A DNA stretch of 64,000 nt from Naegleria gruberi (Eukaryota), in NCBI GenBank assembly GCA_000004985.1, contig GG738899.1, one strand, 5' to 3'. Position numbers and translations under genes: made by a program. Numbering within the stretch: the first letter of the stretch is position 1; each line of letters begins with the position of its first letter. The notes below the pieces were generated by a model that saw only the letters and a list, made by a program, of their open reading frames with translations, made no database searches and was not told the DNA's origin. Shown piece by piece: positions 1 through 42,508 of the stretch.

Positions 1-5
1 TAAGC

Positions 6-1058
6 TCAGAATTTTTCATACCACTTTACAGGGAGTTCTTGTAATAAATCTTTTTCTGGTTTTTGAGAAATCAGAGAGCAATGAAATTCCAAGTTTCCTC
101 TTTTTCCAACTCTAAATTGACCTCCAACGAATGATAACTTTCCATTCCTGAGAACATTTTCTTGCAAATGTTGATTATTGATAGTGACATAGTTTTTCCA
201 ACTCCAACCATTTTTCTCTTTTGAATTGAGTCTTCTGACAGTGTCATCTATCTCATCTAAAAACTTGTCAATTCCACCTGCAATAACTCTTTCATTATTG
301 AGGCTGACAAGAGTTTCGTTTTCTTGAATTTTTCCATCTCTTGTTCCAATCAAATTAGTGTGCATGTAGAAATCGACAATTATTTCCCTTGAGGGATTGG
401 TAGGATCTATAAATTTCATAACCATTGGATTGTTTCTGATAATATAAAAATTGTGAGTGGAATAATCGAAATTTCTTCCTGGACTTCTATTATAGCAAGT
501 AAGAAAATAGTGAATTAAGAGAATTTCGTCTGAACCTATTGGGCTGGTTTCTAATGGTTTCTTGTTGAATGAGCTAATAGGAGTTTTTGAATTTTTCAAC
601 AATATTTTACCATTTAGCTTTACAAATGGTTGTGATTGACCATTTTCAAGAGTTTCTTTCCATATCTTTTCATCCAAAAATTCAGAATTAATAATTTGAA
701 AGAAAACACCATCCCTTTCTTTGTCCCAATACCAAAACACAAGCAAGAACGAGGAAACCATTAAACATAATACAAATAAATTACTGGTGTAGCTTGTTCG
801 AAGTTTGCTCGCTGCAATTGTTATCACTGGTTCTCTTGCAACATGATTAGTATGGAATCTTCTCATCAAAGAGGATGCATGTTGTTGATTGACAGTTTTC
901 CAAGTGTTGAATTTTTTATTGGATGAGTTAAAGATTGAAAATTTTGAATATTGGAATGGTGGAACAAAGAATGTTAATTTGTTCTTGTTTGCACAACCTC
1001 TAAGCAAGTTAGAAATTAATCTGGAGGATGATCTTACTGGTTTTAAGAGTTTATTCAT
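6..1058 (-). CDS. Hypothetical type II membrane protein (350 aa) with a single N-proximal transmembrane helix and a large luminal or extracellular domain; possibly a Golgi glycosyltransferase-like protein.
   Basis: Complete ORF with ATG at 1056-1058 and TGA at 6-8. Hydrophobic segment FVLCLMVSSFLLVFWYW near the N-terminus. No motif I can name with confidence. Confidence 0.5.
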   Translation of the reverse strand: MNKLLKPVRSSSRLISNLLRGCANKNKLTFFVPPFQYSKFSIFNSSNKKFNTWKTVNQQHASSLMRRFHTNHVAREPVITIAASKLRTSYTSNLFVLCLMVSSFLLVFWYWDKERDGVFFQIINSEFLDEKIWKETLENGQSQPFVKLNGKILLKNSKTPISSFNKKPLETSPIGSDEILLIHYFLTCYNRSPGRNFDYSTHNFYIIRNNPMVMKFIDPTNPSREIIVDFYMHTNLIGTRDGKIQENETLVSLNNERVIAGGIDKFLDEIDDTVRRLNSKEKNGWSWKNYVTINNQHLQENVLRNGKLSFVGGQFRVGKRGNLEFHCSLISQKPEKDLLQELPVKWYEKF

Positions 1059-1414: not shown

Positions 1415-4400
1415 TTACATGGTTGAAGTACTAGTAGCAGGCTTCAATCCTTCACCAACATATCTAATGGCATGCTTATTTTGTGAAATGGCAATACGAA
1501 CAGTCTCCTTATTGATAAATCTTTCAGCAAGTCTTCTCAATACAAGTCCATTTGTAGAGACAGCAACCTTTACCATATCTTCACTGATACGGTTGGCATG
1601 TCTGATGAGGAATGGATTCTTCTTGATAATAGGGGTCATGAATTCAATGTCAGATCTGAGGAATCTTGAAGCATAACGAATGGAATTCACACATTGATTA
1701 GTGGCAACGGCAACGAGTTCCTTATCAAAGGTATATTCATTTGGAAGATAGTCCAACAATCTACCATTCTTCTTGAGAGCTAATTCGCACAATTCTCGGT
1801 TAATCTTGTTAGATTTCAAGAATTGAATGCAATTTCCATATCTCTTGACAGACTCTCTAACAAATTCATCATCATTTCTCAAAGATTCGTCCAAAAATTC
1901 GAATGATTTACCATTACTTGTCTTGAGTGAAATCTTGGCAATTTCCAAATCCTTCTTCAATTCTGATGGAGCAAACTTGACAGCCAATCCACAATTTTTT
2001 ACAGCATCCAAAACAATTTGCTTGGTGTTTTGCAAATCAGCAGAGGCAAACTTTAAGGCACGACCATTTACTGAAACTGCCTTTTGAACAATTTCGTAAT
2101 CACTTCTGAATGGAATTGCCAAATATTCCAAGGCAAGACCATTAATGGCAATTGCTAATAGTGCAAATTCTCTGTCTTGTTTGAGGGTTTCACTGGCATG
2201 TTTGAGGGATTTTCTATTCTTCTTGAAACAATCGAGGACAAACTTGGAATCACTCTTCAAATCATCAGAGGCGAGTTTGAGGATAGTAGCTCTGTGATTG
2301 ATTGCTTCCTTGATGTGAGAGGTGTCGAAGGATTGGTCAACCTTTTTTGGATTCTTACGAGCAAGTGAGAGTTTGACATCTGAATCTTGTTGTAATTCCT
2401 TAGAAAGATAAACGAATGATTTTCCACTTTGATTGAGAGCTACCAAAGCAACTTGTTTGTTATTTCTCATATCTTCAGATGCAAATCTAATGGCAGATCC
2501 ATTTTGCTTGACAGCTGCCAAAACAACACTCAAATTATTCTTCAAATCATTGGAAGCATAATCCAACAACAAACCATCCTTCTTGACAACTTTCAAGGTA
2601 ACTTGTTCATTGTTTTGCATTTCCTTAGAAATGAATTTGTAAGCGTCCTTACTGCTCTCAATAGCTCTCTCAACAATTTCCAAATCTTCCTTAAGATGTT
2701 CATTGAGATATTTGATAGAGTCTCCATTATTGGCAACTGCCTTCAATGCAAATTCTCTTTCATTTCTCAAATCGAGAGGTAAATATTGAAGAATTTCAAC
2801 ACCCTTATGATTCAAAGCAGCGTTAGCAATTTCCTTATCAATAATAGTACTACAGGCATATCTGATAGCAGTAGAGTCACATTCAACAGCATATTTTGTG
2901 AATTCCTTATCTTCCCACAAATCAATTGAGACATATTTCAAACTGTCATAGCTTTCCTTGACAGCAACTCTGGCATATTCCTTGTAATCCTTGGAATTTT
3001 CGTCCAAATATTTGAGTGAAGCTCCTTCATAGTACAAGGAAGCAAGAACAACATCTCTGTCACTTAACAAACTCTCGTGAACGTATCTGATGGCGCTTCT
3101 GTCAGTTTTCATAGCTGCCAATGCAATTTCCTTATCCTTGAGAATTTCCTCATCAAATACATATTGTAAACTGGAGCCATATTCTTGAATAGCTGTCATG
3201 ACAATTTCTCTATCTTTCTTAATATTTTCTGGAAGATATTCCAAAAGACATCCTTCAATTCTTACTAATTTCAGTAAAGCTTGTTTGTCATGTCTCAATG
3301 GATGATCAGGAAGTTTGGCCAAAACCAAAGGTTGCTTTACAAGAGCTTCACTAATAAATTCAGGATCATTTCTGAATTTTTCTGGAACATACTTGATATT
3401 ATCTCTATTTTCAATCACAGCTCTGAGGCAGAGTTCTCTATCATTCATAATATCATCGTGACTGATAAAGTATTCTAAACCACATGAAGGCAAGGCAATC
3501 TTGACAAGTTTTGGATCATTTCTCAATTCGAAAGGAATATAATTAATGGAATACTTGCTGGACTGAATGGCAGTCATGTAAACATCTCTTTGTAAGGCAA
3601 GATGAAGTGGTGCATACTTGATTAAATCTCCACTCTTTCTAATGGCAGTCATGAGAATTTCCTTATCATTCAATAATTCAACTGGAAGATATTCGTAGAC
3701 GTTTGGTTCCTTTTCAATAATTCTCATAACAAATTCTCTATCTCTTTGGAGTTCAGCACTGGCATATCTGAATGCTGTATAATAATTCTCCACAGCTGTT
3801 GTGACAATATATCGATCATTGGTGAATTTGGAACCAGCAAAGAGAAGTGCACCTCCACTGCATCTCACAGCTTCCAATACAATTTCATAATCTTCTCTCA
3901 ATTCAAGAGCAGCAAATGCAAGAGCATCACCATTTTCTTGAACTGCAATTTTGACAATTTCTCTGTCAGCTTTGAGTTCTTCACTGGCATATTCTAAACA
4001 TCTTCCATCAAGATATACTGCAAACTTTACAAAATCTCTATTAGAAAGAAATTCTGGATCAACAATGGCATCAATAGATCTTTCCTTGACAGCTGTCATT
4101 ACAACTTGAAGATTGCTTGCAAATTCCTTGCAGGCATGTTCAAAAACGTAACTGCTGTCTCTAACACAAATCTTGACAAGCTCTGCATCTGAAAGATGAG
4201 TTTCATCATCAATATATCTCAAAATAGATCCATCCATTTTCAATGCCTTCTTAACAATTTCTCTATCAGATTGCAACTCTGATGGGAAGTAACGAATGTA
4301 ACTGCACTTTAAGGCATTCATGTAAATCTCAGCGTCATTCTTGAAATGTTCACACTCCTGTAAGACACTTCCATTGTTCTTGATGAGTCTCTTGATGAAA

Positions 4401-6745
4401 TCTCTGTCACTCAATAATTCCTCTGAGAGAATCTTTGGTTCAACGGCAATTCCATGATCGAGTAATTTGGTCATGAATTCTCTGTCTTCTCCTAATTTTG
4501 TATCAATATCGTTGAATCCATACTGATTGGTAAGGAGTGAGAGTAGAGCAATTTCTCTATCTCCCTTAAACTTTGGCAAATCTTCAATGTTTCCACCATT
4601 AAATTGACAAACTGTTTTGGCAAATTCTCTGTCGCTTCTGAGTCTTTCAGAAGCAAATTTGAGAGAATTATAATTGCCCTTACCTGACCAGAGAACAATC
4701 TTTTCATCATCTTTTTGTTGCTTGGTAACATATTCAAGAACTCTTCCATCATTTTCCAATGCAACCATTACAAGAGAAATGTCTTTTTTCAATTCATCAC
4801 TGGCATGAGCAAATGCTCTACCATCCATTCTAATTGCAGTTGAGACAATTTCTCTATCATTCTTGAGTTCTTTAGAGGTATACTCCAAAGCATCTCCTGA
4901 TTTCATTACTGCTCTCAACACGACCCCTCTGTCATTCTTGAGGTCACTCGAAGCATACTCCAATGCTGAGCCATTTTCAGAGACTGCCATCAGGACAATT
5001 TCCTTATCGTTTTTGAGCTCAGCAGAGGCAAATTCAAGTTCTCTACCGTTATTCTTGACCAATTCCATAACAATCTCTCTGTCATTCTTCATTTCATCAT
5101 TCAAATATTCCAGGATAGAGCCCCATCTTGAGAAGCTAGATTTGAGTTTGATTATTTGCAAACATAAATCTCTATCATTCTTGATATTATCTGAAACATA
5201 TTGTAAAGCATTAGTGTTCGAAGAGAGGGCAAGCTTTACAATTTCAAAATCATCTTTCAATTCATCAGAAGCATAAGCAAGAGCTGAACCATCTTGTCTG
5301 ACAGCTTGTTTGACAATCTCTCTGTCAGATTTAACTTCTTCTGGGGCAAATTCCAAAGCAGAACCACGAACCTTGATAGCAGCCTTAACAATTTCAATAT
5401 TTTCTTTGATTTCATCAGAGGCATACTCTAAAACTGAGCCATTCTTTCTGAGTGCCTTCTTGACAATTTCAATATTATTCTTGATATCATCTGAGAGATA
5501 GCTGAGAGCTCTTGGATCTTCTTCGAGGGCAATTAATGCAATTTCCTCATCATTCTTCAAATTATCTGAAGCATATTCAACAATACGACCATTCTTTCTA
5601 ACAGCCATTTTGACAATTTCTCTATCATCTTTCAAGGAATCATCAACGTATTCCAATACATCTGCATTAATCTTGATAGCTTGTTTCACAAACTCTCTAT
5701 CTTGTTTCAATTCATCAGAAACATATCCACATGCTCTGGCATTACTAGAAATGGCAGCAAGGGCAATTTCCTGATCAGATTTAAACTCATCCACAACATA
5801 TTCCATCACATATCCATCTGATTTGACAGCTTTCAACACCAAATCTCTATCACTTTGCAATTCTTCTGGTATTTCCCTTAAATCACTTCCATTTACCAGT
5901 AAAACAGCTTCAACCACTTCACGATCCTGTTTCAATTCATCAGATAAATCGCTCACTAATGAACCGAAAAAGAATGAACATCCTTCTTCCTTTACACCTT
6001 TCAAAACCTTCAAACAAAGATCCTTTTCAGTTCTGAACTTTGGATGAGCATGTGAAAAAACAGTTCCATTATATGACTTGGCAATTGCACTAATCACAAT
6101 ATCAATGTCAGCTTTCAATTCTTCTGGACAAAATTCAAGTGCAGAGCCACTCTTATCCAAAGCTATGAGTGCCAATTCTTTATCTTCTCTCAATTCTTCT
6201 GATGCAAATTGGAAAGCATCTCCATCATTCTGAACTGCAATTTTCACAATTTCATAATCAGCTTTCAATTCATCAGATAAATATTCCAAATTAGAACCAG
6301 CATCTTCAAGAACAATTAGTGCAATTTCTCTGTCGTTTTTCAATTCGTCTGATGCATATTTGATGGATGATTTATCTTCTTTAATGGCCAATAGAACTAA
6401 TTCTTTATCATTTCGTAAAGAATCGGATGCATTTTCTAATAAATTGCCTCGTTTAGGGAGAGCTTTCAAAAACACTAGTTTACAATCATTGTCTGGGAAT
6501 GGATTTTCTGTTAAAAAATCGTCAACGGCAAAGTAATCATCATCAATTCGTCCAAAAGCTTCGAATAATTGTTCCAAATGTTCGAAAGCTTGTTTCTGAC
6601 GATTAACAACTTGATTACGTAAATAGATTCGATGATTTAACAGAATGGAATATGCAGAATTATTGTTGCCATCACATGAATGATCATAGCTTGATCCTCC
6701 ATTAGCGTTCAATGTGACAATTCTAGCATCTTCAAAGTTTGACAT
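1415..6745 (-). CDS. Giant tandem-repeat protein (1776 aa) built from about 40 copies of a roughly 35-36-aa repeat; the repeat resembles the Pfam DUF4116 repeat (my recollection, unverified).
   Basis: Single uninterrupted ORF, ATG at 6743-6745, TAA stop. The repeat appears as variations of SDELKNDREIVLKAVKQNGSALEYASEELKND almost end to end, with a non-repeat N-terminus of about 170 aa. The small ORFs on the opposite strand are antisense artefacts of the repeats. Confidence 0.8.
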   Translation of the reverse strand: MSNFEDARIVTLNANGGSSYDHSCDGNNNSAYSILLNHRIYLRNQVVNRQKQAFEHLEQLFEAFGRIDDDYFAVDDFLTENPFPDNDCKLVFLKALPKRGNLLENASDSLRNDKELVLLAIKEDKSSIKYASDELKNDREIALIVLEDAGSNLEYLSDELKADYEIVKIAVQNDGDAFQFASEELREDKELALIALDKSGSALEFCPEELKADIDIVISAIAKSYNGTVFSHAHPKFRTEKDLCLKVLKGVKEEGCSFFFGSLVSDLSDELKQDREVVEAVLLVNGSDLREIPEELQSDRDLVLKAVKSDGYVMEYVVDEFKSDQEIALAAISSNARACGYVSDELKQDREFVKQAIKINADVLEYVDDSLKDDREIVKMAVRKNGRIVEYASDNLKNDEEIALIALEEDPRALSYLSDDIKNNIEIVKKALRKNGSVLEYASDEIKENIEIVKAAIKVRGSALEFAPEEVKSDREIVKQAVRQDGSALAYASDELKDDFEIVKLALSSNTNALQYVSDNIKNDRDLCLQIIKLKSSFSRWGSILEYLNDEMKNDREIVMELVKNNGRELEFASAELKNDKEIVLMAVSENGSALEYASSDLKNDRGVVLRAVMKSGDALEYTSKELKNDREIVSTAIRMDGRAFAHASDELKKDISLVMVALENDGRVLEYVTKQQKDDEKIVLWSGKGNYNSLKFASERLRSDREFAKTVCQFNGGNIEDLPKFKGDREIALLSLLTNQYGFNDIDTKLGEDREFMTKLLDHGIAVEPKILSEELLSDRDFIKRLIKNNGSVLQECEHFKNDAEIYMNALKCSYIRYFPSELQSDREIVKKALKMDGSILRYIDDETHLSDAELVKICVRDSSYVFEHACKEFASNLQVVMTAVKERSIDAIVDPEFLSNRDFVKFAVYLDGRCLEYASEELKADREIVKIAVQENGDALAFAALELREDYEIVLEAVRCSGGALLFAGSKFTNDRYIVTTAVENYYTAFRYASAELQRDREFVMRIIEKEPNVYEYLPVELLNDKEILMTAIRKSGDLIKYAPLHLALQRDVYMTAIQSSKYSINYIPFELRNDPKLVKIALPSCGLEYFISHDDIMNDRELCLRAVIENRDNIKYVPEKFRNDPEFISEALVKQPLVLAKLPDHPLRHDKQALLKLVRIEGCLLEYLPENIKKDREIVMTAIQEYGSSLQYVFDEEILKDKEIALAAMKTDRSAIRYVHESLLSDRDVVLASLYYEGASLKYLDENSKDYKEYARVAVKESYDSLKYVSIDLWEDKEFTKYAVECDSTAIRYACSTIIDKEIANAALNHKGVEILQYLPLDLRNEREFALKAVANNGDSIKYLNEHLKEDLEIVERAIESSKDAYKFISKEMQNNEQVTLKVVKKDGLLLDYASNDLKNNLSVVLAAVKQNGSAIRFASEDMRNNKQVALVALNQSGKSFVYLSKELQQDSDVKLSLARKNPKKVDQSFDTSHIKEAINHRATILKLASDDLKSDSKFVLDCFKKNRKSLKHASETLKQDREFALLAIAINGLALEYLAIPFRSDYEIVQKAVSVNGRALKFASADLQNTKQIVLDAVKNCGLAVKFAPSELKKDLEIAKISLKTSNGKSFEFLDESLRNDDEFVRESVKRYGNCIQFLKSNKINRELCELALKKNGRLLDYLPNEYTFDKELVAVATNQCVNSIRYASRFLRSDIEFMTPIIKKNPFLIRHANRISEDMVKVAVSTNGLVLRRLAERFINKETVRIAISQNKHAIRYVGEGLKPATSTSTM

Positions 6746-25266: not shown

Positions 25267-25858
25267 TTTTATACAAATTGATTGGGCATGAATAACAGTG
25301 GAAGACAATTGTTACAAACCTTTATGAAAAGGAACAATTATTTTAATTATTTGTTGATAGGAGTTATTTCATTCACTGACGAAATGTTCTTATGGAAATC
25401 ATCAAGTTTTTTACTCATTGGAGAAATAAAAGAGAATATTGATAGCAAATTCATTTCCGTGCTACTCTTCAAGTATTGTAAACGATATCTTCAACAATGT
25501 GTTATCATTATAATATATTAATTATTATCATCTTCCCACCTATTGATATATTATAAAACTGTGTGAGTTTTAAGATTTCAATGTAAATCCAAAATATTTG
25601 TTTTAAGGGCTTCAACACCTATGGTCATCAACTTGTTTTTGAACTTCCATAGTTTCATAGAGTTCTAGTCTATGATTGAAGAATAAGCACTTCTTGCCCA
25701 CAGTTGAACTACTGGCCGTATTATGCAAACACCGAACGGAAAGGAAATCGAACGCATTAATTAAGCAGCTCAAAAAACATTCAATTTCATGTAATCATCA
25801 TCCTCGCTACTCGATGCTTTATATCTTTTCACAAACAAAAAAAACATTCAAATTCATA

Positions 25859-27402
25859 ATGACCCATCCAATGAATAATTCTCATGAAGAACATCTCCCT
25901 CATGGTGAGGAGAGGGATGAGGATGCAATTTTCACAACATTGGAGTGTGATGAAATTATCACAGCCAACCATAAAGATAAATATCACACCAATAGACTCT
26001 GTTGGAATAGAGCAATTAATGCATTTCCGAGAGTTATTACCTACTGTAAAACTGTTGAACATGTTCGTAAGTGCATTGCTTTTGCAAGAGAGCATGCATT
26101 ACCAATCAGAATTAGGTCTGGGGCTCACAGTTATGAGGGATTTTCAACGGGAGATGAGGTCATGATCATTGATGTGAGTCGTATGAAAAGTATTGAACTC
26201 GATATGCAAAAGTTGGAGGCAAGAATTGGTGCAGGTGTTCAAAATATTGAAATATTCACAGCACTCAAAGATAAAGGACTGATTGCTGTTGGTGGGGCAT
26301 GTCCAACTGTGGGTGTTTGTGGCTTTGTTATGGGTAAGTGTTTATTAGTAGTCACTTGTTTACTAATGTAACATTGTACATGCAATTATCAATCTATTGA
26401 AATAATGAAGGTGGTGGTTGGTCCTTCTCTTCAAGATACTTTGGTCTTGGGTGTGACAGTGTTATCGAGTTTGAAATTGTTGACTATGAAGGGAATTTAT
26501 TAACAGTCAACTCTGAATCCCATCCAGAATTGTTTTGGGCATGTAGGGGAGCAGGTGCTGGAAATTTTGGAATTTGTGTCTCAATGAAACTGAAAGTTTA
26601 CAATACATTTGATAGAGCAACACTGATTACCTTAAATTATCCAAATTGTTGCGAGAAGAAAATTGTTTCGAAAATTAAGGCATGGCAAAACTTTTTCAAA
26701 ACTTGTGATTTGAGATTTAATGGGAAAATTAATATTTATAATTGTTCAAAGGATGGAATTGGATTTAACTTTCTGATAGTGTTTTATGGAGGTGCAGATG
26801 AGGCCCACTCGTTGCTTCAACCATTACTGAATGATTGCTGTCCAGAGTATGAACCTTCGATAACAGCAGTGAAATATCCAGATTCATCCATTGATTTATC
26901 AATGCAAGAGTCATCAGTTTATAATACCTTAAAGACGATATGTGATATTCATCCAGATTATGAGAGTTTTAAATCAACAGGAGGATTTATGAGTAGAGAT
27001 TTAGAGACAGAAGAAATTCAAAATCTAATTGAGATTGTGAAAAGGAAAGCAACTGGGTGTACATATACAGCATTTTCTATTTATGGTTTGGAAGGAAATA
27101 TTCGAAAAGTTCCTCATGATTCGACAGCATTCCCATATAGGCAAGCTCAACAAATGATTGGACTCCAAACACAATGGGAGGATGAGCAATATGCAAAGGA
27201 GAATAAGGAATGGCTTGTTGATACAATTTTTAAACATATTCTACCAATAACTGATGGATTTTTTACAAACTTTCCCTTAATTGAATTGAAGGATTATAGA
27301 AAACAGTATTATGGAAGAGAAGAGTGGAGACAAGAGAAACTCTCAAAAGTTAAATATCAATATGATCCATTAAGAATTTTCTCTCATTCTCAAGGAGTGT
27401 AG
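25859..27402 (+). CDS. FAD-linked oxidase of the PCMH-type FAD-binding domain / berberine-bridge-enzyme-like family; two exons join(25859..26333,26411..27402).
   Basis: IRSGAHSYEG and the GGGWSF ... RGAGAGNFGIC motifs form the FAD-binding domain. The 77-nt intron (GTAAGT at 26334, AG at 26409-26410) splices VMG|GGWSF in frame. C-terminal BBE-like YQYDPLRIF. Start chosen at the in-frame ATG 25859; ATG 25814 is an alternative. Confidence 0.8.
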
Positions 27403-28455: not shown

Positions 28456-28574
28456 GGCTACGGCCATATCACGATGAATGCACCTCATCCCGTCCGATTT
28501 GAGAAGTTAAGCATCGTCGAGCCACATCAGTACTGAGGTTGGAGACAACTTGGGAACCTGTGGTGCTGTAGTCT
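28456..28574 (+). rRNA. 5S ribosomal RNA gene (119 nt)
   Basis: GGCTACGGCCATATCACGATGAATGCACCTCATCCCGTCCGATTTGAGAAGTTAAGCATCGTCGAGCCACATCAGTACTGAGGTTGGAGACAACTTGGGAACCTGTGGTGCTGTAGTCT. Conserved 5S blocks (CCGATC-like, AAGTTAAGC, GTACT, GGGAA) are present and the ends pair to form helix I. A TTTTT run follows at 28575-28579. Confidence 0.85.
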
Positions 28575-29244: not shown

Positions 29245-29854
29245 GCCTTATTGATTTTTCAACCTGGGTAAGTTGGCCTAGTTGTCCACTTCCATTTCAC
29301 AGATTATTATAGTATTTGTGCAAAGAATGAGGAAATTCTCCACTTTATTAGTTGTTTCTTACAACTTTCAGGAGGAAGTTCTTAAAAATTGTGAGCTGAT
29401 CTTGAAGCCATGATGGAAATTGCTCTTCCACCTCAATAATTAATCAAGTCAACATTCAATTATTTTCTTGAATCGAAATTTATATTTTTCACACATAAAA
29501 GTACCACAATTTTTTAACCTCACTTTTCACACATTCAAAACCAATATCATAAACCTCACAAATCAAACTTGATAAAGCCATTGACTGTACTTCTACAGGA
29601 TCTTTTCTGTAGGAATACATAAACTCGACTTTTTTGAGTCAATCTGACCTTTGAGGTTAACCAAGATGAAGACTCTGTAGTCACATATCTTGAGCATGAT
29701 ATCGAACTGGAAACATGCTTCGCTGTAGGTTTCCTCGTTCATAGATGATTGCTGCATTCCTTACCAGCCATGGTTTGTGAATGGGGGATTTGTGAACATG
29801 CAGATTGGTACCTTAATTTTTTTAATAATTAATAGAAACTTAAACAATTTCAAC

Positions 29855-29900: not shown

Positions 29901-30450
29901 TGCTTTGCACTTATCAACCAAGATCTATTTGGAACTTTCTTTGCATTAATAGGTACAAAGTGAAAGTCGCCTTAAAAAACTGACTAATAACATCATAAAA
30001 TTAGATTTAGAACAGACAATTACTGAAATTGTAAAACATTGAAAGTTTAATGATTGTTTGTAGGGTTGTATGCAACATTTCTTCTCCAGTATGAACGTTT
30101 CCTCTCAACCAAATATTTGGAGAATGAAACACAATGACCTTGTTTTACATGATGTTCAAAATCATTGTCACTAATTACTTCATAAACATTTTCTTTACAA
30201 ACAGCACAAAACGAAACTCCGTACGAAACCTCAATAAATTGTCTAAGGGAAATGAAAGAGTTCTTCACTATCTTGGCCAACAGATTGAAAAAACTCCCAA
30301 ACTTTAATTGAAACTTCCATTTCAGAGTTGGCTCTATTTTTAAAGAAAGAATTATACCATAATGAAATGAATGTTTTCAACAATCTGAAGCTAAGAGAGA
30401 TTGCAAACCAATACTGATTTTGAGGCATGTGTAATTCTAACATCACTATC

Positions 30451-30480
30451 AGCTCGTATTCTACCACTAAACCATCGACG
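30451..30480 (-). pseudogene. tRNA 5'-half remnant (acceptor plus D-arm only)
   Basis: The reverse complement reads GCGTCGATGGTTTAGTGGTAGAATACGAGC, a canonical tRNA 5' end with a GGTTTAGTGGTAGAAT D-arm. No anticodon stem or T-arm follows. Confidence 0.3.
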
Positions 30481-30738
30481 CTTCTTATTAGTCTATCAAA
30501 TATTATAATAATAGATAGTGTGATTTAATAAACTGTCATCAATGAAGTGTTGGTGGCGAAACTCCACCCATGCCTTTTTTACCTCCTGTTAAAATTACAT
30601 TAAGAATTTGAATGGAACATCATAAGTTTTATCTGGTTCAAAACCATCAATTTTCGAATGGTGTTTTAGTACTCACTCACAAATTAAACTATAACAAATT
30701 AAGAGATAGCTCATTATCTTAATTTTGATATTAACAAT

Positions 30739-30857
30739 GGCTACGGCCATATCACGATGAATGCACCTCATCCCGTCCGATTTGAGAAGGTAAGCATCGT
30801 CGAGCCACATCAGTACTGAGGTTGGAGACAACTTGGGAACCTGTGGTGCTGTAGTCT
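30739..30857 (+). rRNA. 5S ribosomal RNA gene (119 nt), second intact copy
   Basis: Identical to the copy at 28456-28574 except for one substitution (AAGGTAAGC versus AAGTTAAGC). Followed by TTTTT at 30858-30862. Confidence 0.85.
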
Positions 30858-30892
30858 TTTTAATTCAAAATATCAAAGTAAAATGAAATTTT

Positions 30893-31836
30893 TTATTTTA
30901 AATATAAATTGGATGTATTAAATAAACATTTACAATTTAATTCTAATTTATCAAATTTATATTGTTCAAGTACAGTGGTATCAAATTGTAATTCTTGTAA
31001 AATCAAACATTCAACAGTTAATTCATTTAAATTTAAAGGAATATTTAATTTTTTTAAATCATATTCAATAATTGTTAATTTTTTTAAATTACATAAATTA
31101 TTTAAATTAACTATTGTAGTTCCTAATTCTTCTAAATGTAATATTTCTAAATTAATCATATTATTTATAATATTAATTTCAGTTAAATAACATCCAGTTA
31201 AAGATAATTCAGTTAAATTTAATTTTGAAATTGCATTTAAAAAATTAAAATAATTTAATTGTTCTAATTCTGATTTAAATATTAAACTTTTTAAATTATT
31301 TAAATGAATAATACCTTCACCATTTAATTCTGTATCTGTAAATGATAATTTTGTTAATTTGGTTAAATATTTTAAATTAATTTCATTTTCAATTTCATTA
31401 CAATATAATTCTTTTAAATTATTTAATTTAGATAATAGAATAATATCCAATTCATTTAAATTAATTGATAAATGTAAAATTGATAAATTATTTAAATTAT
31501 TTAAATATGGTAATACTAAAATGTTTAAATAATAGAAGAAACCCTTAACATACCTTTTATATCACCTTTTAATTCATATATAGAATTAATGTAATTATTA
31601 TTTTCACAAAATTTAATAAAACTATTAATGTATTTAAATCTGCTATTATATTTGATATTAATAATTGATTTGTAATTTAATTTATTACAAATAATAACAT
31701 TCCATTCTTTTGATATTATTCTTAAATATTTACAACAATATTCAAAGGTAAAATATTTAAATAAATGTTCTATCAATATTTCCGATGGAATGTTCGGTGA
31801 GGAGGAATAATTAATCATATGAACTGAGGATGACAT
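30893..31836 (-). CDS. F-box / leucine-rich-repeat protein (about 301 aa), two exons join(complement 31554..31836, 30893..31515).
   Basis: N-terminal F-box-like IPSEILIEHLFKYFTFEYCCKYLRIISKEWNVII. The C-terminal part is made of LxxLxL leucine-rich repeats. A GTATGT donor and TTTTAG acceptor define a 38-nt intron; the exon lengths sum to 906 nt, which is in frame. The upstream extension of the second track ORF has no stops. Confidence 0.6.
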
Positions 31837-32073
31837 TTTTTTTAATAATGAAAAACAATTGATTGGAAATTCACATCAATTCCAGAATTACAGAAAAACC
31901 AGAAACATTTCGAACAAAAACCGAACACATGATGATTGTGGAATTACTTTATATGATTTCCCTCCCTTCTTCCTGTTAGATTGTTTAATTGTGTAGTGGA
32001 TAATCCAAAAAGTATCCAATGTGAAACAACACTATTCAGAATAGTTTTGATCAAAATTAATGTTTTATTTTAA

Positions 32074-33682: not shown

Positions 33683-35173
33683 ATGATCACACAACCAAAA
33701 CATTCCATCACTTCATTTTCGAAAATACAAGAAAATAGTCCATTCTCTGACGATTCACTCTTTGAAATTTTATCTTTTCACGATGATTTTAAATTTATTG
33801 TACAGAGTTGTGCATTGGTTTCCAAACAGTGGTTTCATGTCATTAAAAATTCATGTAAACACCTCTCGATAACACGTAATAGTGATTGGGAAATGGTTGG
33901 TCAATTGCCGTTTTTGGAAAATATTGCAAATCTAAGAGTGATAAATAATGAAGTTGGATTTAATTGTGAGATATTGGATTCGATGAAAGAATTGAAAAAA
34001 CTCAATTTAGAAAATAATTCTAATATTCATCCAAGTGGATTCAAGTATATATGTTCATTGGAACAATTGACTGATCTTTATATGACTTTCTGTTATTTTA
34101 GATTGCCTATTGCTAAACATTTACCATCGTTGAAATCACTAACTTATCTTCTTATTACGGGTAATTATATTGGTGTAGAAGGAGCCAAGTATATTGGTGA
34201 AATGAAGCAATTGAAACAACTTCATATTGCTAATAATAATATTGGCCCGGAAGGAGCCAAGCATATTAGTGGCCTTGAACAATTGACTATTCTTAATATC
34301 CGTGCCAATGAAATTACTGTGGATGGAGCAAAATTTATTAGTGAAATGAAACAGTTGACTGTCCTTAACATTATTGGCAACGATATTTGTGACGAAGGAG
34401 CTAAATTTATTAGTGGAATGAAACAATTAACTAATCTTGATATTTCTGTTAATAATATAGGCGAGAACGGTGCCAAGTATGTTAGTGAAATGTTGAATAT
34501 AACCAAACTCAATATTGGTTTTAATTCTATTAATGATTGTGTTGAGTGTTTTGGCAAAATGAAACAATTAACAGATCTTAATGTGAACAGTAGCTGTATT
34601 GGATTGTGTGGAATAGTTTTCATTTCGTCATTTAATCAATTAACTCATCTTTCTATAGCTAGTAATAGTATTTCAAATTACGAGGCAAGTCACATTAGCC
34701 AAATGAAAAATGTAATTAAGCTTGACATTTCTGATAATCGTATTGGGGATAACGGAGTCCAATCTATAAGTGAAATGAACCAATTAACTGAACTTAATGT
34801 TTCTAGTATTGATATTACACCAATAGGTATACAATATATCTGTAAAATGGATAATTTAACGTATCTAATAATTGCTCATAATAACATTGGAGTGAAAGGT
34901 GCAAACCAAATCAGTGAAATGAAGCACCTAGCACAGCTTTCTATCTATAACAACGCTGTTGGAGATGAGGGAGCCAAATTTATAAGTGAAATGGAACAAT
35001 TAACTTTTCTAAATATAGGTTCCAATGAAATTGGTGACGAAGGCGTTAAAGCCCTAAGTGGAATGAAGCAATTAACAGAACTTAACACAGTTGATAACAA
35101 TATAAGTGAAGAGGGTGAAAATTACATTCGAGAAATGAATTTGACAGATCATACAGGTATTTATGATGTTTAA
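33683..35173 (+). CDS. F-box-like / ribonuclease-inhibitor-type leucine-rich-repeat protein (496 aa)
   Basis: The N-terminus LFEILSFHDDFKFIVQSCALVSKQWFHVI is F-box-like. It is followed by about 14 repeats of 24 aa of the NNIG-EGAK-IS-MKQLT-LNI type, i.e. RNI-like LRRs. Confidence 0.7.
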   Translation: MITQPKHSITSFSKIQENSPFSDDSLFEILSFHDDFKFIVQSCALVSKQWFHVIKNSCKHLSITRNSDWEMVGQLPFLENIANLRVINNEVGFNCEILDSMKELKKLNLENNSNIHPSGFKYICSLEQLTDLYMTFCYFRLPIAKHLPSLKSLTYLLITGNYIGVEGAKYIGEMKQLKQLHIANNNIGPEGAKHISGLEQLTILNIRANEITVDGAKFISEMKQLTVLNIIGNDICDEGAKFISGMKQLTNLDISVNNIGENGAKYVSEMLNITKLNIGFNSINDCVECFGKMKQLTDLNVNSSCIGLCGIVFISSFNQLTHLSIASNSISNYEASHISQMKNVIKLDISDNRIGDNGVQSISEMNQLTELNVSSIDITPIGIQYICKMDNLTYLIIAHNNIGVKGANQISEMKHLAQLSIYNNAVGDEGAKFISEMEQLTFLNIGSNEIGDEGVKALSGMKQLTELNTVDNNISEEGENYIREMNLTDHTGIYDV

Positions 35174-35229
35174 GGGAAATGAACTTGATCAAGATTAAAA
35201 TTCTATGAGTCCCTCATCAAGGAAGGATT

Positions 35230-36380
35230 TCAATTTGGCAATTTGCTCCTGTTGTTCTGATGATAATTCAGTTTCAGTAGTGGTACTTGATGGAGAAGAT
35301 TGACTTGATGATGAAGTGCCAATAATTTAGATTGTTTCATTTCGAATTGTTCTTGTGAAATGATTCCATTCTCCAAAAGTTTCTTGGCATTTGAGGTGTT
35401 TCTTGGAGAGGTTTCAACCTTTTTTGGTTGTCTCATTTTGAGGTTTTCCATAGAGTTTGTCAAAATTACACACCTTGATTTTTGACCCACCATTGTACCT
35501 TGTTATTTATTGCTGGATTAGCTCAAAGTTACAATTTGCATCATAAACTCCAAATGCAGGAAACAATTCAGGTTGGTTTGGAATATTTGAAAAGGCAACT
35601 CCATAATTAACACCATTGATTGTATAGGATATTTTACCATCTTTAAATTCACATTCAACAATTGATCCATCTTGAATTTGACTGGAATTATTAGAATAAC
35701 TTTTGTTTGATTCTCCATTCTGAGAATAAATGGTTCCACTAGCAGCATACAAATAATATCCACATTTAGAAAAATTATTTGTTTCGTTTACATTAATACT
35801 TTTAGGTGCAAATCCAATTAATAGTTTAGAACAATTAGATATGAGTTTAACTTTGAAATGATTTGATTTTGTTCCTAAAACACTTGAACTCCAATCAGAA
35901 GTGTTTTTTCTCTTTAGTATAGTTGGTGTTTCCAAGACAAGATTTGCAGAACAATACTGTGGATCAAATACTACTGTTTTTGAGTTTCCTTAATTTGAGC
36001 TACTTGTATCATTCTCTAAAATAATTCCATACTTGGATTTGAGTAAACTTCTTCCTTTAGGTGGAAGAATTTCATAAATTGGTGTAATTTGATAATAGAC
36101 AACTTCTTCCAAAAAACCCAGAAGGTCATTCCCATTCAAATTTTCAACTTGGTCCTTGATGTCAATTCCTCAAATAATTTAAAATCAGTTGAAACTGCTC
36201 AAAAGGTCTATCAACAAAATAGGCATTGTCATCTTCCTCAACAGTTGGACTAAAATGATCATTGAAATATCCAGTAAAGAATGTATCCTTCACACTCTTC
36301 AATGTTTGTAAGCTAGTGGAGAATATCTTCCCACCGACGTTTAATTTTACCACTTGATTCTTTCCCAATTTACTTACCAC
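35230..36380 (-). pseudogene. Disrupted BTB(T1/KCTD-type) - SPRY-like - SHOCT-like locus; probably a decaying gene.
   Basis: ORF 36162-36380 encodes the N-terminal half of a T1-type BTB domain (VKLNVGGKIFSTSLQTL ... YFVDRPFEQFQLILNYLRN) and ends in TGA. The rest of the T1 domain (GIDIKDQVENLNGNDLLGFLEEVVYYQITPIYEIL) continues in the +1 frame. It then runs through a single in-frame TAA into the ORF 35507-35935 (GYYLYAASG ... SIVECEFKDGKISYTINGVNYGVAF). After another TAA come two SHOCT-like motifs (KKLLENGIISQEQFEMKQSKLL and IAKLKSFLDEGLIEF) in different frames. No canonical GT-AG introns rescue the frame. Confidence 0.4.
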
Positions 36381-36665
36381 AGAGGCAGTGAATTATTTCG
36401 ATTTTGTTACAAGGAATCTTATCCAAATCCAAATACAAAACAAATTATTTTCACAAGACACTTCCAACCCTCAAACTTTATGAATTGATTATCAATAATA
36501 TTGCTTTCCTCTTTGAGAAAATGGAGTTTGTCATATTTTGGAAATTGAGATGCAATATCTGTATCTCCACTGCGGAAATCCTGAAATTAATGAACTTGTA
36601 ATTTCGAATAAATTCTGCCCAACGTTCTTCACATTCTTCTTTCAAAAAAACAAACAACCCAAGAA

Positions 36666-37214
36666 ATGAAAGCTATCATTCTCTCCATTGTCCTCCTTGC
36701 TTTCCTTGCCATCACATCAGTCAATGGTCAATTTCTCAGATCTTCCGTTTACACTGACTCCAAATGTTCAAGCACTCTCCCAATGTTGGATCTCTACATT
36801 CCAAGTACTAACTGTACTTCCAACCCAAACTGTACTGGCAATAACATCAACACACTCTTTACCACTAGTCAATGTACTTCAACTGTTCCTTCCATTGGTT
36901 CCAAGAATACTTTACAATTATCCATTTATTCCGACACTACTTGTGCTAGTGGCAACTTGGTTGTCTCACAAATCTTCCCATTGGATACTTGTGTCGTTGT
37001 TCCAAGTGTTGGTTCTTATAAGAGTACTGCCTGTAGATATTTGACTGTTTATTCTGATAGTGTCTGTACTAATGTTAAACAAACTGTCGATTTTTCTGCA
37101 TATAATGGAGTTTGTCTTTCTGGAACTAAATATGTTTGTTCTGGAGCTGAAAAGATGATTGGATCAAGCATTTTGATGGCATTGATGATGATTTTTTCAT
37201 TCTTTACTTTTTAA
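36666..37214 (+). CDS. Cys-rich secreted or GPI-anchored-type surface protein (182 aa) with internal repeats.
   Basis: Signal peptide MKAIILSIVLLAFLAITSVNG. Repeated S-x-C-S-S/T-x-P/V modules (YTDSKCSSTLP, TSQCTSTVPS, SDTTCASGNLV, YSDSVCTNV). Hydrophobic C-terminus GSSILMALMMIFSFFTF typical of a GPI signal. Confidence 0.55.
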   Translation: MKAIILSIVLLAFLAITSVNGQFLRSSVYTDSKCSSTLPMLDLYIPSTNCTSNPNCTGNNINTLFTTSQCTSTVPSIGSKNTLQLSIYSDTTCASGNLVVSQIFPLDTCVVVPSVGSYKSTACRYLTVYSDSVCTNVKQTVDFSAYNGVCLSGTKYVCSGAEKMIGSSILMALMMIFSFFTF

Positions 37215-37833: not shown

Positions 37834-39951
37834 TTATTGTTTTGTTTCATGTGGTTTCAACCTTTCTATAAATGTTGAAGAGTTACTACTACTGTTATTA
37901 GTTAAATAGAGCCATTCTTTAGCCCTTGTAATTGCAACATAGAATATTCTATCCTCTTCTCCTTCATGGACAATTTGTTGCTTTTTCAGTTGTATTGGAT
38001 CTGATTTCTTGATAAGTGGCATGACACCATCTTGCACTTCTGGTACAAAAACATGTTTCCATTCTCTCCCTTTTGCTCTGTGGACAGTGCATATGTGAAT
38101 TCCCTTTCCATCTGATGAGTTATTATATGTTTCATCATTAAATGAAATAAGAGAATCAATCAGATCAGAAGTAACTAATTCATCATTTAAGCCCAATCCA
38201 TCAATTATTAGAGGATCGTCCCAATTGAATTTCTTTTGAATTGTTTCAGCAAGTTTTAAAAAAGTTGTGTTTGCTAAACCTGCTGCCAATTCGTTAATGA
38301 CTGTAAAGAAACGGATGAATTTCTCTAATTTGTCTTTCTTAGGTGCTTTTCCTTTTGTAGGTACTTTCGTACTAGGAGTTTCCTGATCCTTTAAATATTG
38401 TAAATATTTTTCAAATGATTTCTCTCCAATCCCTTTAAAATAGATGAAATGCTTAATAATCCATTTCATTGATTTTGTAAATTTTTCATCCTTGATTTCC
38501 ACACCATCACATATCAACTTCATCAGATTCAACATTACTCGGGTATCATCCTTGGCATTCTTTGAGATTGGAATCTTTTTGTTCTTGAGTATACTTTCCA
38601 ATTCGCTGGTATTAGTACTTCTTCTCATTAGTATGGCAATATCATTATAAGATACTCCCTTATTATTCAATATTTGAATTTGATTTGCAATATATTGAAA
38701 TTCTCCATCACGAGTACTAAAATTGTTTAAAGTGATAGCATCTTGGGAATCGGTTTCTATTGAATTTTCTGTTGATGTTTTCATAAATCGATTAGATGCT
38801 AACACAATTGACTTCATGCTTCTATAGTTTCTTCTGAGCTTTAATATTGTTGCAGATGGGAAATCTTCCATAATTTTGTCAAATATCTTTTCTTGAGCGC
38901 CTAAGAATGAATAGATTGCTTGATGTGGATCTCCAAATACTGAAAATCTCGTTTTCTCTCCAATAATCATTTTCATAAATTTATACTGAACTGTGGATGT
39001 ATCTTGAAACTCATCAATTAAAACATCTGAGTAATGTTGTTGATAAAAATCTCTTGAACCTTGATGATTACTCGTTAATATATAGCAAGCTTCTCTCATA
39101 AGTGAAGATAAAGTAAGCATGCTCTTGGCTATTTCTTCATATATAGTCAAGGCAGCTTTGTAATCTGAAGTTGCAAACTCATTAGCAGAGACTTCTCTTG
39201 CGTATTCATCTTGTGCCCAATCAACATATTTCTCAACAGTCTCTGTAAGTGTAACATTTTTCTTTTCTAATTGCTCTTTCATCTCCTTAATAATCGATTC
39301 TTTTGTTGAAATATATGTTTTTCCTTTAGCTCCGTATTTTCTGCAAATTGACAAGGCAAACGCATGGATAGTTTTTACATCATATCTCTTTTCCACTCCA
39401 TATTTTTGTAATCTTTCTTGAATTTCCCTAGTTGCATCTCTAGAAAATGTTACAAGCAAAAGACAAGCATTAGGATTAGTTTCAATAATCTTCTTGGCCC
39501 TAAATGTCAACACAAGTGTTTTACCACCACCTGGTGGTGCCTGTACAACAAGATATTTGGCAGAATCATTTTCAATAACACCAAGTTGATCGGCATCGAA
39601 CTTTGGCACCTCTACAACAGGTACAATTGCGTTACAGTCAATTGTTGCCTTCTTTTTCTTCTTTTGAAAAAATGGATGCAAAGGAAGGGATGAAGTAGGT
39701 GTTTCTATTATTGATGAAGGTGACACTTCTATTTGGCTCTGAGTATCATCGGGATTCTGTTCTTGCTCCTGGCTCGGAGAGGATGAAGTGGAATTTTCTT
39801 TACTTTTAAGTGGTTTGAAAAATTCAACCACGGTTTTTTGTTTTTTACTATCTGGAATTGTACTATTGGAAAGTGATTTGGATTTTCTCTTTAGAGAATT
39901 ATTTCCTGATGATTTTGATGAAGAAGGCAAGCTTTTTCTTCCCGAAGTCAT
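37834..39951 (-). CDS. UvrD/PcrA/Srs2-like superfamily-1 DNA helicase (about 705 aa) with a Ser/Lys-rich N-terminus.
   Basis: SF1 motifs: Walker A APPGGGKT, motif II VLIDEFQDTS, motif III GDPHQAIYSF, motif VI CTVHRAKGREWKHVFV. The track ORF starts at a GTG; the first ATG is at 39949-39951. TAA stop. Confidence 0.8.
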   Translation of the reverse strand: MTSGRKSLPSSSKSSGNNSLKRKSKSLSNSTIPDSKKQKTVVEFFKPLKSKENSTSSSPSQEQEQNPDDTQSQIEVSPSSIIETPTSSLPLHPFFQKKKKKATIDCNAIVPVVEVPKFDADQLGVIENDSAKYLVVQAPPGGGKTLVLTFRAKKIIETNPNACLLLVTFSRDATREIQERLQKYGVEKRYDVKTIHAFALSICRKYGAKGKTYISTKESIIKEMKEQLEKKNVTLTETVEKYVDWAQDEYAREVSANEFATSDYKAALTIYEEIAKSMLTLSSLMREACYILTSNHQGSRDFYQQHYSDVLIDEFQDTSTVQYKFMKMIIGEKTRFSVFGDPHQAIYSFLGAQEKIFDKIMEDFPSATILKLRRNYRSMKSIVLASNRFMKTSTENSIETDSQDAITLNNFSTRDGEFQYIANQIQILNNKGVSYNDIAILMRRSTNTSELESILKNKKIPISKNAKDDTRVMLNLMKLICDGVEIKDEKFTKSMKWIIKHFIYFKGIGEKSFEKYLQYLKDQETPSTKVPTKGKAPKKDKLEKFIRFFTVINELAAGLANTTFLKLAETIQKKFNWDDPLIIDGLGLNDELVTSDLIDSLISFNDETYNNSSDGKGIHICTVHRAKGREWKHVFVPEVQDGVMPLIKKSDPIQLKKQQIVHEGEEDRIFYVAITRAKEWLYLTNNSSSNSSTFIERLKPHETKQ

Positions 39952-40196
39952 CACGAATTTTTTTTGATTTATTTTTAATTACCTTAAACGTGATGATTGA
40001 CCATATGCAAAGGTTATTGAAATCAAGTTAATTGGATAAGCACATATTGCTCATATTAAAAGTAAATGATCATTATTTTGTAAACACCAAAAGTTGTAAA
40101 GTCAAATAGAACCCTTTTAGATCATGATGAACATTCTATCATTGATGTGGGTTGATTAGATCACCCGATGACAACTTTTTAAATAATCAAAAAAAA

Positions 40197-42435: not shown

Positions 42436-42508
42436 GCCCCGCTAGCTCAGTCGGTAGAGCGTTGGACTTTAAATCCAACGGTCGTGGGTTCGAGCCCCAC
42501 GTGGGGCG
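42436..42508 (+). tRNA. tRNA with anticodon UUA on a tRNA-Lys-like body; it would decode the UAA stop codon (ochre-suppressor-like).
   Basis: GCCCCGC-TA-GCTCAGTCGGTAGAGC-G-TTGGA CTTTAAA TCCAA-CGGTC-GTGGGTTCGAGCCCCAC-GTGGGGC-G. The anticodon stem is 5 bp and perfect, which fixes the loop as C-U-U-U-A-A-A: U33, anticodon 34-36 = UUA (42469-42471), A37. The D- and T-arms match the tRNA-Asn here and eukaryotic tRNA-Lys(UUU). One T to A change at position 36 relative to Lys-UUU would produce this anticodon. A TTTTTTT run follows. Confidence 0.7.

Follow-up and report, generated by a model that had tools for sequence, protein, structure and literature searches.

Within the 64,000 nucleotides of Naegleria gruberi contig GG738899.1 (assembly GCA_000004985.1) that were analysed here and are referred to as the window, the minus strand at positions 35230-36380 reads as a BTB domain, a second conserved-looking domain and two SHOCT-like motifs, separated from one another by changes of reading frame and by TAA codons. 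The question raised by this locus is whether it is one gene that is read through by recoding, one gene that has decayed, or a juxtaposition of unrelated sequences. The first-pass annotation had regarded it as a single BTB–SPRY–SHOCT gene broken by two frameshifts and two in-frame TAA codons, and had drawn attention to a tRNA gene with a UUA anticodon in the vicinity. The analysis indicates that the interval very probably consists of two relics of unrelated genes that lie next to each other on the minus strand and are no longer functional, here termed relic A and relic B, and that these are ordinary genomic debris and not a recoded gene.

Genomic setting of the interval

Five ORFs of the window are residue-identical to proteins of N. 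gruberi NEG-M (D2VUN6, D2VUQ9, D2VUP4, D2VUQ1 and an adenylate kinase, the last in its ENA copy). The window has a G+C content of about 33% and is gene-dense, with 26-27 ORFs of at least 200 codons under the standard code, together with RNA genes for two 5S rRNAs, one U3 snoRNA and five tRNAs. Both relics are located on the minus strand inside an intergenic gap of about 1.5 kb, and the relics, their neighbours and the 5S and U3 genes were placed as follows.

28456-28574, plus strand: 5S rRNA
29581-29809, plus strand: U3 snoRNA
30739-30857, plus strand: 5S rRNA
33683-35173, plus strand: F-box/LRR gene (stop at 35171-35173), convergent neighbour, called functional
35202-35462, minus strand: relic B, decayed 3'-end fragment of a multi-SHOCT-repeat gene (HMMER, blastn, MAFFT and tblastn)
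35507-36389, minus strand: relic A, disabled and 5'-truncated BTB_2–SPRY copy (tblastn of eight paralogues, two frames)
36666-37214, plus strand: secreted Cys-rich protein gene, divergent neighbour, called functional

A collection of 5.8 billion proteins that includes the N. gruberi annotation contains no exact match to any part of the locus, for which the annotation thus has no gene model. Elsewhere in the window, the U3 snoRNA gene is flanked by the two 5S rRNA genes, all within 2.4 kb, and the lowest G+C content of any 2-kb bin (24.5%) was recorded at 30001-32000. Two same-strand ORFs at 25676-26371 and 26401-27402 (plus strand) are about 30 nt apart and could represent one gene with a short intron or a frameshift. 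An ORF of 1776 aa at 1415-6745 (minus strand) consists almost entirely of repeats of about 35 residues of the type DREIVLxAVxxNGxALxYASxELKxD, a pattern that we take to be DUF4116-like.

Relic A: a BTB_2–SPRY copy, its lesions and its stop

Three-frame translation of the minus strand yielded three pieces of relic A. The first (...FTASVVSKLGKNQVVKLNVGGKIF...LILNYLRN) is closed by TGA at 36164-36162; the second, one frame over, runs from GIDIKDQVENL to ILENDTSSSN and is closed by TAA at 35992-35990; and the third (GNSKTVVFDPQYC...NFELIQQ) is closed by TAA at 35509-35507. In tblastn searches, eight paralogues matched the window from 36389 to 35510 in two frames. A translation in which the frame change was bridged, as is required for the BTB_2 match, gave a Pfam hit to BTB_2 (PF02214) over residues 11-102 at 67.5 bits (E=1.4e-18; cut-off 21.4), bearing out the T1/KCTD-type BTB domain that had been proposed. 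The second domain was matched by Pfam as SPRY (PF00622) at 36.3 bits (E=6.7e-9; cut-off 26.3), and the conserved SPRY region begins with VVFDPQYC at 35974. The features of relic A are listed below in the order in which they are read.

36395-36378, minus strand: missing start (three-frame translation and coordinates)
36350-36080, minus strand: BTB_2 (T1/KCTD-type) domain, split by the frameshift (Pfam PF02214)
36170-36168, minus strand: 2-bp deletion that changes the frame by a net +1 (codon comparison with L002, L003 and L004)
35992-35978, minus strand: 15-nt stretch with the premature TAA (35992-35990) as its first codon (translation and alignment)
35827-35519, minus strand: SPRY domain (Pfam PF00622)
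35509-35507, minus strand: TAA, the ordinary stop of the family (paralogue alignment)

The bridged translation retrieved 31 homologues, among which BTB_2–SPRY proteins from Naegleria, 275-408 aa in length, rank highest. The best match is the N. gruberi protein XP_002668714.1 / EFC35970.1 (P0001, named 'predicted protein, partial'; E=1.4e-111, 87% identity). Across the comparisons relic A and P0001 are 87-90% identical, with 98% identity in the first 53 residues, whereas identity to the other paralogues is 45-62%. Both domains are present in P0004 and P0005 from N. gruberi and in P0002, P0006 and P0007 from Naegleria-like metagenome contigs, and the family DNA in L002, L003 and L004 consists of uninterrupted single-exon ORFs with the stop right after SPRY. 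P0001 and the intact paralogues share with relic A the order BTB_2 then SPRY, and relic A, including its SPRY part, aligns colinearly with them up to the final residue; however, the intact paralogues are uninterrupted ORFs, whereas relic A is without about 120 N-terminal residues and a start, and carries a 2-bp deletion and a TAA. The intact paralogues, for which the first-pass annotation had suggested a search, have the architecture (coiled coil)–BTB_2–SPRY, without SHOCT. The N-terminal element of this architecture comprises about 60-140 coiled-coil residues in most full-length members and is absent from relic A, in which homology to the paralogues begins only at their residues 121-128 or thereabouts, corresponding to window position 36389. 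P0007 (275 aa) likewise has no coiled-coil region, which is therefore not strictly required for the family. Metazoan KCTD proteins are described by the same Pfam BTB_2 model as relic A, and KCTD5-like animal proteins were recovered as weak matches (E of about 1e-6), but the KCTD matches carry other C-terminal domains (PF16017, PF07534), unlike the SPRY domain of relic A, and in this homologue search the combination of BTB_2 and SPRY was found only in Naegleria-type sequences. In the Naegleria-like metagenome contig L002, two divergent BTB_2–SPRY genes are present at 1-776 (minus strand) and 1430-2638 (plus strand), and a stray SPRY tail fragment (VNYGIAFSDIPNQPKFYP) lies at 2706-2765 (plus strand), some 70 nt past the stop codon of the intact one, so that partial BTB_2–SPRY copies occur in relatives too.

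In the alignment, every paralogue reads NYLR-GID at the position of the frame change, which falls in an AGAGGA run within the BTB domain. The codons of the window at this point are TTG AG-GA ATT GAC, with the hyphen marking the shift, as compared with TTG AGA GGA/GGC ATT/ATC GAC/GAT or TTG CGT GGC ATT GAT in the intact paralogues, and the two tblastn frames of relic A overlap at 36168/36169, the N of 'YLRN' and the G of 'GIDIK' being products of overlapping readings. The frame change itself, at 36168-36170, was reported correctly in the earlier reading, whereas its placement exactly between YLRN and GIDIK was not correct, the lesion being a 2-bp deletion after NYLR. Introns that would repair relic A were considered and rejected, in agreement with what had been argued before: each intact paralogue whose DNA was read is one uninterrupted ORF, relic A differs from them at the shift by exactly 2 nt, and the 286-nt spacer that separates relic A from the gene at 36666 offers no ATG together with a splice donor. 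If the locus were instead a functional recoded gene, the frame would have to be changed by a programmed +1 frameshift at AAU-UGA (YLRN/DIK), and the closure of the zero frame by a stop right at the shift site is what speaks for this; against it, the paralogues do not share the shift site, being in frame there with two extra bases (AGA GGN).

A TAA between the BTB domain and the second domain had also been reported, and this codon (35990-35992) does indeed precede what is a true SPRY domain. With this codon begins a stretch of 15 nt (TAAGGAAACTCAAAA, translated as stop-GNSK; alignment columns 270-275 or thereabouts) that is not present in the closest paralogue, P0001, which reads SSN-----TVEFDP, and the TAA lies within the length-variable BTB–SPRY linker with CTCAAA direct repeats on both flanks. 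The stretch is either a small duplication-type insertion that carries the stop, or the result of a 15-nt loss in P0001 combined with a point nonsense change here; the position of the premature TAA in an indel of a variable linker argues against its being a recoded codon. The second in-frame TAA, at 35507-35509, had been counted as a further disruption, which it is not: the window copy ends in ...FELIQQ, the paralogue ends are ...FEFVE, ...FEFINA, ...IELLDE, ...FEFIND and ...LEFV, each followed by a stop, and all eight paralogues terminate within two residues of this TAA, which is therefore the normal stop of the family and another point against recoding.

One lesion had been missed altogether. 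There is no ATG/Met codon in the BTB–SPRY frames, whose three ORF pieces together comprise approximately 290 codons; the possible initiator position is occupied by GTG (36380-36378), and an in-frame TAA (36395-36393) stands directly upstream of the point at which homology begins. Reading of the 286-nt spacer identified no ATG able to reach a splice donor before a stop. The same GTG and upstream TAA are present in L001, an independently assembled metagenome contig (ERZ929261) from a related strain that is 98% identical to the window over the spacer and the gene at 36666; its overlap with relic A covers the first 80 nt or so only, the contig ending at its match to window position 36300, inside the 5' half of the BTB domain where relic A is 98% identical to P0001. 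Beyond the gene corresponding to that at 36666, L001 (1092-5250) contains two ORFs of about 180 aa and SDA1, as opposed to the helicase-like ORF of the window (37834-39954), a difference in gene order that points to a rearrangement or to a paralogous region in the related strain.

These observations bear on the reading that the organism has an intact gene and that the lesions arose through mistakes in sequencing or assembly, or represent a single null haplotype in a heterozygous polyploid strain. A 2-bp slip in the AGAGGA run would be plausible as an error or an allele, the conserved residues of relic A are undecayed, and the BTB 5' half, being nearly identical to P0001, is a repeat of the kind that may confuse an assembly, L001 also breaking there. 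However, this would require errors at three independent lesions, each of a different kind, and L001, from a related strain sequenced and assembled independently, shows the absence of the ATG and the upstream TAA as well. The 286 nt to the divergent neighbour leave no room for an upstream exon and contain no usable combination of ATG and donor, and no near-identical intact protein from the related strain occurs in the collection, although its orthologues of the neighbouring genes are present there. This reading is accordingly regarded as very unlikely.

Relic A is thus clearly homologous to paralogues that are intact in this genome, and it has more than the single disabling lesion by which a duplicated pseudogene is recognised, and of the features of a functional member only the position of the stop is conserved, the start codon and two bases of the BTB domain being absent and a premature TAA present. 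The pseudogene reading that had been offered as the parsimonious one is upheld for the BTB–SPRY part, in which three independent disabling lesions contrast with intact, intronless paralogues. All of the 46 family-invariant columns of the alignment (46/46) are kept in relic A, as they would be in a gene that is still functional, and these undecayed residues are the main residual argument for the rival explanations; with every family-invariant residue still in place, inactivation was probably recent. On the preferred reading, relic A is a duplicated pseudogene of a lineage-specific, intronless (coiled coil)–BTB_2–SPRY family, which may have been copied without its first 120 or so codons and start codon, or may have lost them later, and which has suffered the 2-bp deletion in the AGAGGA run of the BTB domain and carries the premature TAA in the linker.

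Relic B: a fragment with SHOCT-like motifs

Relic B starts 45 nt downstream of the stop of relic A and includes two SHOCT-like motifs.

35388-35320, minus strand: SHOCT-like motif 1, AKKLLENGIISQEQFEMKQSKLL
35242-35198, minus strand: SHOCT-like motif 2, IAKLKSFLDEGLIEF, in a different frame from motif 1

A strict SHOCT-like pattern occurred once in the six frames of the window, against 0.06 occurrences expected by chance, and a loose pattern gave four matches in the window, two of which are those found here, 155 nt apart. Motif 1 was matched by Pfam SHOCT (PF09851) at 24.7 bits (E=1.8e-5), which is below the cut-off of 27 bits, and motif 2 was unmatched. The frame-corrected SHOCT-like peptide gave no match in a word-indexed homology search; the 87-aa ORF at 35493-35230 (minus strand), used as query in exhaustive HMMER searching, returned P0040 (E=5.3e-12), which clusters with N. 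gruberi NAEGRDRAFT_59074 / D2VS68 (P0045, 737 aa), the two proteins forming a near-identical pair. D2VS68 is named 'SHOCT domain-containing protein' in UniProt and is matched by Pfam SHOCT at 158.7 bits (E=1.3e-47) with seven repeats; the motifs of relic B are accordingly SHOCT-derived by descent. The C-terminus shared by P0040 and D2VS68 contains ...GKPQNETTTKVESPSSPRNTSNAK...KLLENGIIAQEQFEMKQSKLLGTSPSSTTTETELSSEQQEQIAKLKSFLDEGLID..., and the D2VS68 C-terminus ...KILGKPQNETTTTKVESPSSPRNTSNVKDQNVKVELAKLKKLLENGIIAQEQFEMKQSKLLGTSPSSTTTETELSSEQEEQIAKLKSFLDEGLIDQDDYQEELNKILNK corresponds to the text of the window, where it is split over two frames; tblastn of D2VS68 likewise matched relic B in two frames. 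The earlier remark that SHOCT is unusual in a eukaryote is fair in general, but the presence of the motifs at this locus is explained by an intact, annotated Naegleria multi-SHOCT protein, so that SHOCT in Naegleria is real but not new.

At the DNA level, with the SHOCT-repeat gene in L005 as the reference, blastn aligned window positions 35458-35202 with the last 280 or so coding nucleotides of that gene (3612-3891), 232 of 238 aligned nucleotides being identical (97.5%). Six indels relative to L005 (+1, +1, -6, -36, +15 and +2), at least three of them frame-breaking, were found by blastn. The two motifs do lie in different frames, as had been noted, but the stretch carries more than one frameshift: the blastn and MAFFT alignments show at least five or six indels. 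Homology is lost before the stop of the parent gene, or resumes after a 25-nt deletion and extends to about 35183, and the TAA that follows GLIEF lies outside the clearly homologous block. Relic B thus shares with D2VS68 the last two SHOCT repeats and a Ser/Thr linker as a nucleotide-level copy, but the D2VS68 gene is full-length, whereas relic B represents its 3' end only, lacks the terminal ...DQDDYQEELNKILNK and is joined in frame to nothing. The fragment is rich in indels and poor in substitutions (six indels and about six substitutions in 238 aligned nt), an unusual form of decay that could reflect error-prone copying at insertion instead of slow neutral drift.

No SHOCT-like sequence was present in the eight paralogues of relic A, nor downstream of the three whose DNA was read, and the idea that members of the BTB_2–SPRY family extend C-terminally into SHOCT repeats was therefore rejected. 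The proposal of a single BTB–SPRY–SHOCT gene falls with this, the family ending after SPRY and the SHOCT stretch being copied from NAEGRDRAFT_59074 / D2VS68; since the fragment derives from a different gene, the composite architecture is an artefact of adjacency. Relic B is a piece of about 260 nt from the last two SHOCT repeats of a gene of the NAEGRDRAFT_59074 family that was probably inserted or duplicated into 3' intergenic space, and several frame-breaking indels have scrambled it, probably after insertion.

The position of relic B raises a further reading, according to which the relics are untranslated but kept as functional RNA, for example as 3'-UTR or as antisense to the convergent LRR gene or to a paralogue. 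Relic B lies right beside the 3' end of the LRR gene and would be antisense to an extended 3' UTR, and an antisense or siRNA relationship to the parent genes might be possible in view of the high nucleotide identity; on the other side, neither transcription nor conservation nor structure lends this support, and six indels within the roughly 260 nt of relic B speak against constraint. A retained RNA function is considered extremely unlikely, and on the reading of two non-functional relics these sequences are presumably not expressed, neither being translated into a BTB–SPRY–SHOCT protein.

The UUA-anticodon tRNA, stop codons and the significance of the relics

The tRNA gene to which the first-pass annotation had referred was identified at the following position.

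42436-42508, plus strand: tRNA, anticodon UUA, 73 nt (ARAGORN and Rfam)

It is located about 6-7 kb from the BTB–SPRY–SHOCT interval and scored highest in Rfam among the five tRNAs of the window (70.8 bits), with all four stems perfect and a T7 run 6 nt downstream. It is unlike the two tRNA-Glu genes of the window; its D-arm, CU-UUA-AA loop and G73 resemble those of eukaryotic tRNA-Lys(UUU), presumably with a single U36A change. Genes of the type 'tRNA-Sup-TTA' are predicted in standard-code eukaryotic genomes, and the gene described here resembles them in having a cloverleaf with an anticodon one base off a sense anticodon in a host that uses TAA as a stop. Scans of JGI metagenomes with the tRNA body, using W at position 36 or a degenerate Lys-like body, gave no match, and a literature search for Naegleria suppressor tRNAs or BTB pseudogenes found nothing relevant.

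TAA terminates 21 of the 26 ORFs of at least 200 codons, which together comprise 12,789 codons, about 60% of the window, and are stop-free by construction, while their in-frame flanks contain 3.2% TAA. After a TAA terminator the next in-frame stop is usually again TAA, at a median distance of 9 codons, the next TGA or TAG following at a median of 23 codons. A genetic code in which UAA is a sense codon, of the ciliate type or similar, was rejected on these grounds, TAA being the main terminator and frequent in the flanks of ORFs.

The well-formed UUA tRNA with its downstream T-run at this distance, and the intact conserved residues of relic A, would be in keeping with a functional recoded gene in which the +1 frameshift and UAA suppression by this tRNA yield one BTB–SPRY(–SHOCT) protein. 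Recoding fails because the start is missing, with no ATG/Met in any piece and an in-frame TAA upstream, because the shift site is unconserved and the second TAA is a normal stop, and because the SHOCT part is foreign and would need at least three more frame corrections; the predominance of TAA as a terminator of long ORFs in the window argues in the same direction. A recoded gene at this locus is therefore as good as ruled out. A weaker proposal, in which the tRNA is expressed, chargeable and probably a Lys-type ochre suppressor whose low-level read-through lets recently nonsense-mutated genes such as relic A persist undecayed, is hardly credible; read-through of relic A would also require non-AUG initiation and a bypass of the 2-bp deletion. 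UAA suppression cannot rescue relic A, from which the start codon and two bases are missing as well, and of the suggestion made earlier the existence of the tRNA stands while its role in the TAA codons, one of which is an ordinary stop, does not: the tRNA plays no part at the locus.

The identification of two unrelated relics adds one unannotated pseudogene and one gene fragment to the map of N. gruberi and matters mainly for annotation hygiene, pseudogenes and gene fragments being commonplace in expanded protist families. It removes a false lead, namely stop recoding by a suppressor-like tRNA and a chimeric eukaryotic BTB–SPRY–SHOCT architecture, and leaves the tRNA(UUA) gene as the only nearby item that may be of separate interest. 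For the families concerned, it means that the BTB_2–SPRY family and the SHOCT-repeat gene have both shed partial copies.
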